A DNA stretch of 64,000 bases from an uncultured Candidatus Saccharibacteria bacterium (GTDB taxonomy: Bacteria; Patescibacteriota; WWE3; UBA101185; UBA10185): contig CAYLVW010000001.1 of the NCBI GenBank assembly GCA_964387275.1, positions 150,619-214,618 on the forward strand, in the 5' to 3' direction. Below, in pieces: positions 10,846 through 53,051 of the stretch. Within the stretch, counting starts at the first letter, position 1. Each line of letters opens with the position of its first letter. A program made the position numbers and the translations under genes. The notes beneath the pieces were generated by a model that saw only the letters and a program-made list of their open reading frames with translations, did not search any database and was not told the DNA's origin.

Positions 10846-10946
10846 AAAACAAACCTAGCCCACCCAACAAAAGGACAGAAAAATAAAGTAAAAATTTAGT
10901 GCAGAATCTCTGCGAGTCTCACAAAGAGACACCAAAGAAAGAAAAT

Positions 10947-13025
10947 ATGGCAGAATCAATAAACAAACATTATCCATTAGAAAAAATCCGAAACATTGGG
11001 ATTATTGCTCATATTGATGCAGGTAAAACTACAACTACTGAAAGAGTTTTATACTATACAGGTGTTACTCATAAGATTGGTGAGGTTCACGAAGGTGCTG
11101 CTACTATGGACTGGATGGCCCAAGAAAGAGAACGAGGTATTACAATTACTTCGGCAGCTACTACTTGTTTTTGGGGAGATTGTAGGGTAAACATAATAGA
11201 TACTCCGGGACACGTTGATTTTACGGCTGAGGTAGAAAGATCTCTGAGAGTATTAGATGGCGGTGTAATCCTGTTGGATTCTTCTCAGGGTGTCGAGCCT
11301 CAAACTGAAACTGTTTGGAGACAGGCTCAAAAATATCACGTACCCCTAATCGTATTTGCAAATAAATTAGATAAGCTAGGCGGGGATTTCTACATGTCCA
11401 TGGATTCAATTCATGAGAGGATTTCCAAAGATGCCTATGCTGTACAACTACCAATTGGCTTTGAAGGAGATTTTAACGGAGTTGTTGATCTTATAACAAG
11501 AAAAGCCTATACCTTCGAAGGAAAGATGGGAAATGATATCAAGGAAGTTGAAATTCCTTCTGATATGGTCTCTAAGGTTGAGGAATATCGAACTAAACTA
11601 GTAGAAAAGGTTTGTGAATCTGATGAAGCGCTTATTGAGAAATATTTATCTGGAGAAGAGATTTCTATTGATGAGATTAAATCTGCCTTACGACAGTTGG
11701 TTATTACAACAAAAATCTACCCAGTATTTGCTGGAGCATCTCTTGCTAATGTTGGAGTCCAAAAAATGTTAGATGGTGTCATCGACTACCTACCAAGCCC
11801 TAAAGATGTTGGTGCTGTTAAGGGTTATAGGTCTGGTGTGGAAGAACCAATAATGATGGAAGCGGATGATAAGGCACCTTTTACTGCTCTGGCATTTAAA
11901 GTTCAGACGGATCCTTTTGTAGGTAGGCTTACTTACTTTAGAGTTTATTCTGGAAAGATTACAGCAGGTTCTTATGTATATAACTCCACAAAAGACAAGA
12001 AAGAGCGAATAGGTAGAATTCTTTTAATGCATGCAAATCACAGAGAGGAAGTTAAAGAAATTTCTGCTGGTGAGATTGGAGCTGCTGTAGGTCTTGATGC
12101 TACAACAGGTGATACGATTTGTTCTGAGTCAGACCCAATAGTACTTGAATCAATCAATTTTGCAGAACCGGTTATAGGTCTTGTTATTGAACCAAAAACA
12201 AAAGCAGATAGAGATAAACTGGGTGAATCTTTAAAGAAATTTACAGAAGAAGACCCCACATTTAAAGTAGGTTCTAATGCAGAGACTGGCGAAACCTTAG
12301 TTTACGGTATGGGTGAATTACATTTAGAAATTATCGTTGATAGATTAAGAAGAGAGTTTAATGTCGAAGTAAATACAGGTAAACCTCAGGTTGCCTATAG
12401 AGAAAGTATTAAGAATAAAGTAGATCAAGAAGGTAAATATATCAGGCAGTCGGGAGGTAGGGGGCAGTATGGTCATGTATTTATTACGCTAGAGCCTTTG
12501 GAACGCGGTAAAGGTTTTGAATTTGCAAATAAGATTGTAGGTGGATCTATACCCCGTGAGTATATACCGGCAGTTGAAAAAGGTGTTAGAGAAGCTATTC
12601 AGGCTGGTGTCGTAGCTGGATATCCTGTTGTTGATGTAAGGGTGTCCTTATTTGATGGATCTTTCCACGAAGTAGATTCTTCCGAAATGGCCTTTAAGTT
12701 TGCAGGTCTGGAAGCTTTCAAAGATGCTCAGAGAAAAGCACAGCCTTATTTGCTGGAGCCTATAATGAAGGTCGAGGTTACAACCCCTGAAGAGTTTATG
12801 GGGGATGTTATCGGTAACTTATCTAGTAAGAGAGGTAGGATCGAGGGAACTGAAACACGAGGTAATGCTAGAGTTATTACTGCAACCGTACCACTTGCAG
12901 AGATGTTTGGGTATGCTACTGAGCTTAGAGGTATGACACAGGGTAGAGCTGCATTTGTTATGGAACCAAGTCATTATGAAGAGGTTCCAGCAAGTATAGT
13001 AGAGAAGTTAGCAACTAAGAAGTAA
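10947..13025 (+). CDS. fusA: Elongation factor G.
   Basis: [20 protein letters not shown]-domain, and domains II to V conserved. The start is chosen at [13 protein letters not shown] (10947). An in-frame upstream start at 10899 is also possible. Confidence 0.95.
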
Positions 13026-13390
13026 ATTTCTGCGAACTAAATCGCGATTTACCTCTGGTCACATATTGCAGTGTACTTTTAGTAGGGCTAAAAGACTCGG
13101 TCTAAAAGCATAGTTTTAAGTAAACAGAGGAATTTTTAGGTAAATTACTTGCTTAGTGCCAAATTTGTTTTAAAATAAGCAAGAAACTACATAAAAGTCT
13201 TGCAATTGATTACAATTTTTGGTTAACTATACAACTAGCTCTGTTAACTACTAGTGCTTTAGCGTGGCAAGTTCTGACCCGCTTAGCGAAAAAGACAGTT
13301 GCACTATTGCTTTGTAAATAATTAATTATTTAAGACTTAAACTGAAGGTTTACGCGCTAGGAATAAGTCTTTAGTTTAGAAAGGTCAAAC

Positions 13391-14563
13391 ATGGCTGATT
13401 TCGTAAGAAATAAACTACACGTCAATGTTGGTACTATTGGTCACGTCGATCATGGTAAGACAACCTTGACAGCTGCTATCACAAAAGTATTAGCAGAAAA
13501 AGGACAGGCTCAATTTAGAGCATATGATTCCATTGATAAAGCTCCTGAAGAGAGAGCCAGAGGAATTACAATTAATATTACTCACGTAGAGTATGAAACT
13601 GCAAAAAGACATTACGCACATATTGATGCTCCAGGGCACGCAGATTACATTAAGAATATGATTACAGGTGCTGCACAAATGGATGGTGCTATTTTGGTAG
13701 TATCAGCTCCAGATGGACCTATGCCTCAGACCAGAGAGCATATTTTACTTGCTAAGCAGGTGAATGTTCCAGCTCTTGTGGTATTCATGAATAAGTGTGA
13801 CATGGTTCAAGACGCAGAAATTCTAGAATTAGTTGAAATGGAAGTTAAAGAATTACTTGCTAAGTATGGTTACAATGATGTTCCTGTTATCAAGGGTTCT
13901 GCTGTAAAAGCTTTAGAAGGTGATGCAGCTGCTGTAAAAGCCATTGAAGACTTAATGGACGCAGTAGATAATCACATTCCAGATCCAGTTAGAGAATTAG
14001 ACAAGCCATTCTTGATGCCCGTAGAAGATGTTTTCTCAATTATGGGAAGAGGTACAGTTGCTACCGGTAGAGCTGAAAGAGGAGTACTTAAGATCAACGA
14101 AGAAGTAGAAATTGTTGGTATTAAAGACACAAAAAAGGTAGTAGTAACCGGTATTGAAATGTTTAAGAAGTCAATGCAGGAATGTCAAGCTGGTGATAAC
14201 GTAGGCATATTGCTAAGAGGGGTTGAAAGAACTGACATCGAAAGAGGTCAAGTTTTAGCAAAACCAGGTTCAATTAAGCCACATACAGAGTTTGAAGCTC
14301 AGGTTTACGTACTTTCCAAAGACGAAGGTGGTAGACACAAGTCTTTCTTCTCTGGTTATAGACCACAGTTCTATTTAAGAACCACAGACGTTACTGGTGA
14401 GATTACACTCCCAGCAGGTGTCGAAATGGTAATGCCTGGAGATGATGTCAAACTTACTGTTAAGCTCATTACTCCAGTTGCTTTAGAAGATGGTTTAAGA
14501 TTTGCTATTAGAGAAGGTGGTCACACAGTTGGTGCTGGTGTTATCACTAAGGTAATAGCCTAA
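13391..14563 (+). CDS. tuf: Elongation factor Tu.
   Basis: [45 protein letters not shown]. 390 aa. Confidence 0.97.
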
Positions 14564-14574
14564 GAAAGAAATTT

Positions 14575-14895
14575 ATGGCAAAGGTAGCTAAAGAATACAA
14601 AATCAGAATAAAACTAAATGCTTATGATAGCAGGATTATGGATCTTAGCTGTTCCAAGATTGTAGACACTGCAATTAGAACCGGGGCTAAAGTGGTTGGC
14701 CCCGTACCTTTGCCCACTAGAACCGAGAGATTTACCGTTATTAGAGGACCTCACATTGATAAGAGGTCAAGAGAGCAATTTGAATTAAAGACTCATAAGA
14801 GAGTCATAGATATACTTAATCCCACAGGGTCTACAATTGACAGCCTGTCGCACTTAAGTCTTCCTGCGGGAGTAGGTATATCTATAAAGATGTGA
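14575..14895 (+). CDS. rpsJ: 30S ribosomal protein S10.
   Basis: [14 protein letters not shown]...[29 protein letters not shown] is canonical S10. Confidence 0.95.
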
Positions 14896-15022
14896 TAGAG
14901 CCACTTGGGTTGTCCGTACTATTAGTAATTTAGGGTTTCTGGCCCAGAAAAGCCTTTTTTGCTTGCAAATACTGGATAAAAACACATAAAAGTGATATAC
15001 TGAATGCCGTTTACAGTCGATT

Positions 15023-15042
15023 GGCGCAGTAGCGCCTTTTTT
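15023..15042 (+). terminator. Intrinsic-terminator-like hairpin (GGCGC-AGTA-GCGCC + TTTTTT) located between rpsJ and rplC.
   Basis: Perfect 5-bp GC stem followed by a 6-T tract ending 20 nt before the rplC ATG. The unusual placement inside the S10 operon suggests an attenuator. Confidence 0.45.
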
Positions 15043-15061
15043 GATGGAAATTAGGAAGAAT

Positions 15062-15487
15062 ATGGAACAAATACTAAAAGGAATAAAAGTAAATATGACT
15101 CAAATTTTCCAGGATGATGGAACACTCCTTCCTGTAACAATAGTAAAATCGGATTCTGATCTTAATAAAGATATGGAGAATAAGGATGTGGTGATTATTG
15201 GTACTTCCAAAGGTAAGGGTTTTGCTGGAGGCATGAAAAAATGGAATTTTAAAGGTCAGGAAATGACTAGAGGTATGTCGGATGGGCCAAGAAAACCTGG
15301 TTCTCCCGGAGCTCAGACCCCAGGTAGGGTTTTAAGAGGTAAAAAAATGGCAGGACGTCTTGGTGGGGAAAGAGTAACAGTAAAGGGTATTAGAATAGTA
15401 AAAATTGACGAGTCACAGAAGTTTGTTTATGTTTTAGGGCCAGTACCAGGTGCTAGGAACTCAAAAGTTGAGTTAAAGGTTTTATAA
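15062..15487 (+). CDS. rplC: 50S ribosomal protein L3.
   Basis: MEQILKGIKVNMTQIF matches the L3 N-terminus (GxKxGMTQIF). AGGAAG RBS 4 nt upstream. The start was moved from the ORF-track TTG at 15041. Confidence 0.93.
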   Translation: MEQILKGIKVNMTQIFQDDGTLLPVTIVKSDSDLNKDMENKDVVIIGTSKGKGFAGGMKKWNFKGQEMTRGMSDGPRKPGSPGAQTPGRVLRGKKMAGRLGGERVTVKGIRIVKIDESQKFVYVLGPVPGARNSKVELKVL

Positions 15488-52572: not shown

Positions 52573-53051
52573 CACAGGATATAATTTACGAAAAAACGAT
52601 ACCTAGAAAGAATCTATTAATAACTGGATTACTTTTTTTAAAGTTCCCTCTATATATACCTTTTGTTAATATGTTGGTGAGGAAATGGCTAAAGCACAGT
52701 TCTGATATAGAAATCATCCCTGGTTTTATGAGTTTTTACGCAAATATCTATGCTAAAAACGCATTTTTATGTGACACATATTTTGCAGATTATGCGCCGG
52801 TGCACATTGGTGAGGGTACACATTTTTCATTTCAATGTATGGTTTTAACATCAAAACATGATAAATCAGATTTCCAGAAAATTATTTGTTCTCCGGTTAA
52901 TATAGGAAAAAATGTATATATAGGAGCTAGGGTTTTGATACTTCCCGGTGTGAGTATTGGAGATAATGCTGTAATTGGTTCTGGGTGCGTCGTTTCTAAA
53001 GATGTCCCTAGTGGGGCTTTTGTGGTGGGAAACCCTATGGTGATAAAGTGA
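52569..53051 (+). CDS. Left-handed beta-helix (hexapeptide repeat) O-acetyltransferase, maltose/galactoside acetyltransferase-like.
   Basis: [45 protein letters not shown] contains tandem hexapeptide repeats. Confidence 0.8.

Follow-up and report, generated by a model that had tools for sequence, protein, structure and literature searches.

The spacer between rpsJ and rplC (14896-15061, 166 nt, + strand) in the window, that is, the entire 64-kb stretch of DNA under analysis, contains a compact terminator-type hairpin at 15023-15042, which probably throttles transcription into the large ribosomal-protein operon. The best explanation, to which we give about an even chance of being correct, is that the rplC operon has a lineage-specific transcription attenuator in its 5′ leader, with this hairpin as the terminator. 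On the + strand, it is composed of GGCGC (15023-15027), an AGTA loop and GCGCC (15032-15036), followed by TTTTTT (15037-15042), and the T-run ends 19 nt before the rplC ATG. The stem of five GC pairs and its AGUA loop fall within the range of short GC-rich terminator stems with loops of 3-8 nt, and in the sense orientation of the flanking genes the stem is directly followed by the T6 run, in the position of a terminator U-tract. As the 5′ side of the stem is not accompanied by an A-run, the hairpin has the shape of a one-directional terminator. Its predicted folding energy ranges from -8.4 to -9.7 kcal/mol, with a z score of -2.6 against shuffled sequences.

Scanning of the window revealed that this hairpin is the sole all-GC terminator-like site within 9-28 kb, and the pattern GGCGC-N3-7-GCGCC occurs once in 64 kb, compared to 0.01 occurrences expected. 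With a strict definition of a terminator (at least 5 bp, at least 4 GC pairs and at least 6 T in the next 9 nt), applied to both strands of the 64-kb window, there is only one other + strand site, at 53004; this site (53004-53026) reads GTCCC-TAGT-GGGGC followed by TTTTGTGGT. A sequence-only reading of the spacer had reported the hairpin, the 166-nt spacing of the two genes and a TGaTATACT extended -10 between two stems. All three were confirmed at 15023-15042, 14896-15061 and 14993-15001, respectively, and the hairpin proved to be unique in the window and conserved.

According to the open reading frames and their translations, the locus comprises, all on the + strand, rpoC (ending at about 9886), rpsL (9905), rpsG (10338), fusA (10899-13025), tuf (13391-14563), rpsJ (14575-14895) and rplC (15062-15487); the GC content is about 36%. 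The 106-residue product of rpsJ was assigned to S10 by a Pfam Ribosomal_S10 match on the identical protein in the relative L081. The rpsJ gene follows tuf at a distance of 11 nt and is the final gene ahead of the break; all genes downstream from rplC are tightly packed, and the rpsJ-rplC spacer is one of just two breaks across rpoC-to-rplR. The tuf-rpsJ gap is also 11 nt in L081 and mostly 48-69 nt in other WWE3, where it may carry its own GC hairpin with a T-rich tail, as seen in L082 (881-903), L001 (2545-2562) and L173 (2510-2531). The 365-nt gap between fusA and tuf (13026-13390, + strand) has two blocks that are near-identical between the window and L081 (966-1230). The first is promoter-like, around 13176-13232, and the second consists of the 78 nt directly before the tuf ATG (13313-13390), with one mismatch against L081. 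The latter holds an inverted repeat, AAGACTTA...TAAGTCTT, at about 13317-13353 and resembles a conserved tuf 5′ leader; the fusA-tuf spacer has no Rfam match.

The rplC start at 15062, which is preceded by a Shine-Dalgarno sequence AGGAAG (15053-15058, + strand, by direct sequence reading), is kept as TATGGAA in five relatives in the spacer alignment. Two in-frame starts further upstream, TTG at 15041 and ATG at 15044, were rejected in view of this alignment. The counterpart of this upstream region in L174 is ATGGCTTAA, a two-codon mini-ORF ending in a stop, and L081 also has an ATG in frame upstream of its rplC start. Gene callers may over-extend L3 across 15041-15061 and, in relatives such as L166, across the hairpin itself. 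The L3 of the window has only 141 residues, and its closest homologues are L3 proteins of 130-157 residues; those named belong to candidate division WWE3 or ‘Patescibacteria group’ genomes. We regard the source of the window as a WWE3-like bacterium of the Candidate Phyla Radiation (CPR). In an ordinary bacterial L3 of about 210 residues, the stretch from the N-terminal PVT(I/V) strand to the GxSKGKGF motif has approximately 65 residues that are missing here, as they are in all top homologues.

Loci of relatives, designated by L numbers, were collected by a metagenome scan, a genome scan and twelve exact-protein look-ups, which together yielded 18 distinct WWE3 lineages, several of them related to one another, with L3 identities to the window of 57% to 84%. 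The genome-contig scan with an L3 alignment used over-general peptide patterns and returned mostly Proteobacteria, with only 2 WWE3 loci. The rpsJ-rplC spacers of these lineages are 97-295 nt in length. The sequence-only reading had proposed to compare the same spacer in relatives and had named absence of the hairpin there as its refutation; a GC-rich hairpin of 4-7 bp with a loop of 3-6 nt was found in 18 of the 18 distinct spacers. The T-run after the hairpin is kept in 17 of them and is degenerate in L176. The distance from the hairpin end to the rplC start is 11-38 nt, with the exception of L082 (78 nt).

The stem differs in sequence among lineages, being GGCGC/GCGCC in the window, L174, L081 and L083/L089, GCGCC(C)/(G)GGCGC in the L002 clade, L082, L166, L172, L173 and L090, CCCTC/GAGGG in L001 and CCGG/CCGG in L176. 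At least four stem sequences thus occur over the 18 spacers, the structure being kept while the sequence changes. Covariation within the stem is modest because the terminator stem is largely a self-complementary GGCGCC. Outside the hairpin element, the spacers are unalignable between WWE3 lineages; even in the closest relatives, L174 and L081, conservation is restricted to the last ~130 nt of the spacer, from ~14928. As MAFFT misregistered the stems between lineages, a covariance model was dropped in favor of explicit hairpin scans and permutation tests. The same loci, 152 kb in total, contain six other + strand hairpins of the same definition. Given this background, the same position in every one of the 18 WWE3 lineages indicates that the placement of the hairpin is not due to chance.

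Spacers measured by hand outside WWE3 are 22-37 nt long (Dojkabacteria L060 and the low-GC loci L097, L103 and L110). In 90 other, mostly proteobacterial loci, for which starts were found by a rough method, the rpsJ-rplC distance has a median of 43 nt and exceeds 90 nt in 25. The earlier statement that the two genes are normally nearly contiguous is therefore correct only in part, and with a quarter of these loci above 90 nt, a long spacer is not specific to WWE3. About 1 kb is inserted between rpsJ and rplC in L094, L120 and L149, and L126 and L115 (GC 0.53-0.58) have spacers of 140-160 nt, that of L126 with a clear terminator directly after rpsJ; the S10/L3 junction has thus been broken more than once in bacteria. 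A tandem (GTTACAA)n repeat takes up the S10-L3 spacer of L151 (2106-2312) and L152 (427-605), two contigs of another CPR lineage (L3 about 40% identical), and its copy number differs between them. At the start of the 282-nt spacer of L090 (538-820), a 35-nt unit (GACGCTAACGCTACCAATTAGCTAACGCCAATTGT) occurs almost three times as a direct repeat.

Upstream of the hairpin lies a promoter-like element on the + strand, consisting of a -35-like TGGATA (14973-14978) and, after a 17-nt spacer, an extended -10 TGaTATACT (14993-15001), both recognized as consensus matches. The -10 ends 21 nt before the hairpin stem of the window, and transcription would be expected to start near 15008. Taken as a whole, the promoter scan showed no enrichment over shuffles, and no promoter-like site was found between the stem and the rplC ATG of the window. 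The three relatives closest to the window preserve a block that runs from about 14928 up to the hairpin. The sequence TGATATACT recurs unchanged in L174, L081 and L176; its counterpart in L175 is TGGTATAAT. As the nonamer is constant even where the hairpin differs (L175 and L176), it appears to be kept as a DNA signal rather than as an RNA pairing partner. Moreover, TGnTAnnnT is present upstream of the hairpin in 8 of 12 independent lineages, compared to 2.4 in shuffles (p = 0.0006), and in one of the 12 in the reverse-strand control. Promoter-like sequences of other types are TGGATT-17-TAATAT in the L002 clade and TTGAAA-16-TATAAT in L090. Between the -10 and the hairpin lie 19-30 nt in the window clade; several others have 47-60 nt there, and the L002 clade has about 95 nt. 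In L176, L090 and perhaps L001, this distance falls to just -1 to 4 nt, and a transcript from that promoter would start within the stem. No promoter can fit into the 11-38 nt that separate the hairpin from the start codon, and the rplC mRNA must therefore cross the hairpin in most lineages.

The fold of the whole 166 nt has no unusual stability (z = 0.06 against shuffles), and a large structured RNA was rejected on this ground. A search of the whole window against Rfam 15 gave no family at gathering score, and at E values up to 10, region 14800-15150 gave only a chance-level match to the rnk leader (17 bits against a gathering threshold of 55). The sequence-only reading had also described a second, weaker T-tract stem. 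An AU-rich hairpin, UUUCUG-GCC-CAGAAA, does exist at 14936-14950 (+ strand), but it is not terminator-like: its fold is weak (-6.8 kcal/mol, z = 0.33), and four nucleotides (AGCC) detach it from the T6 run at 14955-14960, for which reasons it was rejected as a terminator of rpsJ. Versions of this stem occur in L081 (UUUUA-GCCC-UAAAA) and, in shorter form, in L174 (UUG-GCC-CAA). The GCC(C) loop is constant in both relatives, the L081 stem has two compensatory changes, and the L174 stem is shortened symmetrically by 3+3 nt. The AU-rich hairpin may thus be functional despite its non-terminator look.

The WWE3 lineages outside the window clade have, 11-21 nt ahead of the hairpin, a purine-rich strand whose sequence complements the loop together with the last 2-3 nt of the 5′ arm; where the loop sequence varies, this strand varies with it. 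The pairs of upstream strand and arm top plus loop are CAAGGG:CCCTTG in the L002 clade, ACAAGG:CCTTGT in L090, CTAAAGG:CCTTTAG in L172, CTTGGG:CCCGAG with one G-U pair in L166, AAAGAG:CTCTTT in L001, TAGGGT:GCCCTA in L082 and CAAGGGGT:GCCCTTTG in L173. In a permutation test over 11 independent lineages, the summed complementarity of matched pairs reached 60.0, compared to 47.9 for cross-lineage pairs (p = 2e-5). The signal persisted with Watson-Crick pairs only (p = 1.6e-4, 11 lineages) and upon leaving out the window clade (p = 2.6e-4). Against shuffled upstream sequence, the sum over 13 lineages was 71.5 compared to 53.2 +/- 2.6, and a control target on the 3′ arm gave no signal (p = 0.66).

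The presence of G-U pairs points to an interaction at the RNA level more than to a DNA palindrome. Folding of the RNA just as far as the loop end, to mimic a nascent transcript whose 3′ arm has yet to emerge, places the competing pairing in the minimum-energy structure of most lineages. An H-type pseudoknot between the upstream strand and the loop was rejected, as 0-1 nt would have to span a helix of 5-7 bp, and the pairing moreover consumes 2-3 nt of the stem. With a pseudoknot being sterically implausible, the competing and terminator pairings should be mutually exclusive. The covarying upstream strand is, at the sequence level, the signature of an antiterminator in these other WWE3 lineages. 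A leader peptide following the SD-like strand was rejected, as by eye the starts and frames are inconsistent between lineages, and the resemblance to a BoxA-like motif of Nus-dependent antitermination is only vague.

The corresponding strand in the window is a candidate at 14998-15009 (+ strand). It could form two pairings, UACUG (14998-15002) with CAGUA (15027-15031) and UGCCG (15005-15009) with UGGCG (15022-15026). The nascent fold has a predicted energy of -10.2 kcal/mol, and the fold with the terminator blocked is nearly isoenergetic with the full fold (-10.7 and -11.6 kcal/mol, respectively). The UACUG half overlaps the -10 box, and would be present only in transcripts that start further upstream. 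The window clade shows no covariation of the competing strand, and the loop change in L081 is uncompensated. An antiterminator in the window itself is thus an uncertain candidate, suggested by family resemblance to the other WWE3 lineages. In addition, the RNAalifold consensus contains a pairing of CCGUU (15007-15011) with GAUGG (15043-15047) across the terminator and the U-run; the window, L174 and L081 all retain this pairing, with no covariation.

The promoter-like site upstream of the hairpin and the covarying competing strand in relatives make an attenuator the best of the three options that the sequence-only reading had offered, the others being a site that sets the stoichiometry of S10 against the downstream genes and an internal promoter/terminator pair. 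We propose a model whose start site, actual termination, direction of regulation and sensor we infer from sequence. The boundary between transcription units in WWE3 would lie between S10 and L3, not ahead of S10, such that tuf and rpsJ form one unit and the genes from rplC onward form the next. RNA polymerase would reach the site by reading through from tuf-rpsJ or after initiation at the spacer promoter, near 15008, and would transcribe GGCGC-AGUA-GCGCC-U6 about 20 nt ahead of the rplC start codon. A fraction of the polymerases would be released at the U-run, setting the output of the downstream ribosomal-protein operon. In the other WWE3 lineages, the upstream purine strand would pair with the arm top and loop before the 3′ arm exists, and the competition of this pairing with the terminator fold could make the terminated fraction adjustable. 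The most plausible input would be an excess of a protein encoded downstream, L4 being suggested only by analogy with E. coli; its binding would block the competing pairing or stabilize a paused complex, leading to more termination. Several observations count against an attenuator: the -10 of L176 and L090 abuts the hairpin, which fits a terminator-promoter overlap better; at 5 bp, the stem is rather short for efficient termination; its covariation is modest; the promoter scan lacks enrichment; and the competing strand of the window clade does not covary. Neither a ligand nor rRNA mimicry was recognized for the leader.

The main rival, in our view possible but rather unlikely, is a constitutive leaky terminator between operons, free of any sensor, that ends most tuf-rpsJ transcripts. 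EF-Tu and S10/NusE would be made in excess over the proteins encoded from rplC onward, and the nearby promoter would top up rplC. The spacer would then be a junction like those joining translation operons in Salmonella (PMC6735719), which L176 and L090 resemble. The 11-nt distance between tuf and rpsJ fits this picture, as does the fact that the hairpin is the first terminator-like site after tuf. The extra tuf-rpsJ hairpin of some relatives and the true terminator-promoter overlap in L176 and L090 point the same way. However, most lineages have 19-95 nt between the promoter-like site and the hairpin downstream of it, and the transcripts of that site would therefore be terminated as well, which is odd for a plain boundary, and the covarying competing strand would have no role. 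The earlier interpretation is thus partly supported: an attenuator before L3 fits best, and a constitutive, stoichiometry-setting terminator is its live rival.

The hairpin might instead act on the finished mRNA as a 5′ stabilizing stem, a processing site or a translation element, the last either as a U-rich ribosome landing site or through release and sequestration of the SD-like upstream strand. In the window, some 15 nt would separate the hairpin from the inferred 5′ end, the complementary strand upstream is SD-like (AAGGG, AGAGG and AAAGG), and the L002 clade has no SD in the mere 11 nt between hairpin and ATG. We nevertheless consider such a post-transcriptional role improbable: the 6-8 U directly after the stem in nearly all lineages are a hallmark of intrinsic termination that neither stabilizers nor processing sites need, the distance between hairpin and ATG varies from 11 to 78 nt, and the window has its own SD downstream of the hairpin. 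Less probable still is a small RNA gene lodged between rpsJ and rplC with the hairpin as its terminator. The succession of promoter-like site and terminator would suit it, and the L002 clade has an interval of about 120 nt with a further conserved CCGG hairpin; but the window has only about 35 nt there and L176 about 0, the sequence of the interval lacks conservation between lineages, neither the window nor the spacer matched an Rfam family, and rplC would be left promoterless. A functionless chance hairpin, for which it might be said that the total of terminator-like sites in 9-28 kb equals the shuffle expectation, has a negligible likelihood and is effectively refuted by conservation, given that the element recurs with different sequences at the same place in all the distinct WWE3 spacers and is unique in the window.

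In E. coli, L4 together with NusA stimulates termination about 30 nt before the first cistron of the S10 operon, within a leader of 172 nt and five hairpins that is confined to Gammaproteobacteria (work of Zengel and Lindahl, summarized in PMC3616713). The WWE3 element resembles this leader in having a terminator hairpin and U-run tens of nt before the first cistron of an L3/L4/L23/L2 operon, downstream of the operon promoter (here a promoter-like site). By analogy, the expected logic would also be the same, with excess ribosomal protein leading to more termination. Unlike the E. coli leader, however, the WWE3 element comes after rpsJ instead of before it, and the window leader, measured from the -10 to the ATG, is about 55 nt with a single hairpin and none of the HA-HE and HG set. 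No homology in sequence or structure was detected, and the host, WWE3, belongs to a different phylum. In addition, the E. coli leader uses no antiterminator, in contrast to the candidate in WWE3 relatives. A relocated E. coli S10 attenuator, as the sequence-only reading had considered, is unsupported, given the lack of homology, the different phylum and a leader far too short; the best reading is that the WWE3 element would work like the E. coli S10 leader while standing outside that family.

Ribosomal-protein leaders of the Firmicutes type operate by terminator/antiterminator switching, for instance the L20 leader of infC-rpmI-rplT. They have the order of promoter, mutually exclusive pairings, intrinsic terminator and ribosomal-protein genes that is proposed for the WWE3 element, but differ in operon and sequences; no rRNA-mimic site was identified and no Rfam model matched here. 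Another comparison is the L4-Archaeoglobi r-leader candidate upstream of rplC-rplD-rplW-rplB (Eckert and Weinberg 2020, PMC7247131), likewise a cis-element directly before an operon beginning with L3. In contrast to the WWE3 hairpin, it is archaeal, does not represent a Rho-independent terminator and is unrelated in sequence, and the Rfam models gave no match here. In Archaea, S10 follows EF-1alpha and is always apart from L3-L4-L23-L2 (PMC10833476), a boundary similar to that of WWE3, where S10 is tied to tuf and the next unit would begin at L3.

The translation operons of Salmonella show inter-operon terminator-promoter overlaps, termed ‘operon concatenation’ (PMC6735719). The WWE3 spacer similarly combines a terminator and a promoter-like site in one short spacer between collinear translation-machinery operons. 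However, in the window and most WWE3 a considerable distance separates the promoter-like site from the hairpin downstream of it, with no overlap in the window, and the WWE3 relatives have a covarying competing strand in addition. Among WWE3, only L176 and L090 look like a true overlap of the Salmonella type.

We tentatively put forward, as a possibility well short of an even chance, a WWE3-wide riboregulator before rplC. Its SD-like purine strand and anti-SD-like pyrimidine stretch would form the antiterminator, and occupancy of the strand would gate the operon from L3 onward. Candidates for the occupant are, by analogy, a ribosomal protein encoded downstream, for instance L4, and, at a more speculative level, free 30S subunits acting via their anti-SD.

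Feedback control of ribosomal-protein operons is well characterized mainly in E. coli and Bacillus, and in the literature we found no comparable element described for WWE3, Patescibacteria or the Candidate Phyla Radiation. The conserved module of promoter, competing strand and terminator before rplC, which in the window spans less than 60 nt, would, if true, be the first r-leader candidate of the CPR, and attenuation of the L3/L4 operon would have evolved independently at another gene boundary. The riboregulator, if true, would represent an independent functional analogue of the E. coli S10 attenuator at an archaeal-type S10/L3 boundary, in a reduced-genome phylum with almost no gene regulation described. 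The gene arrangement suggests that the locus marks a bacterial lineage in which S10 would be transcriptionally tied to EF-Tu, as in Archaea.
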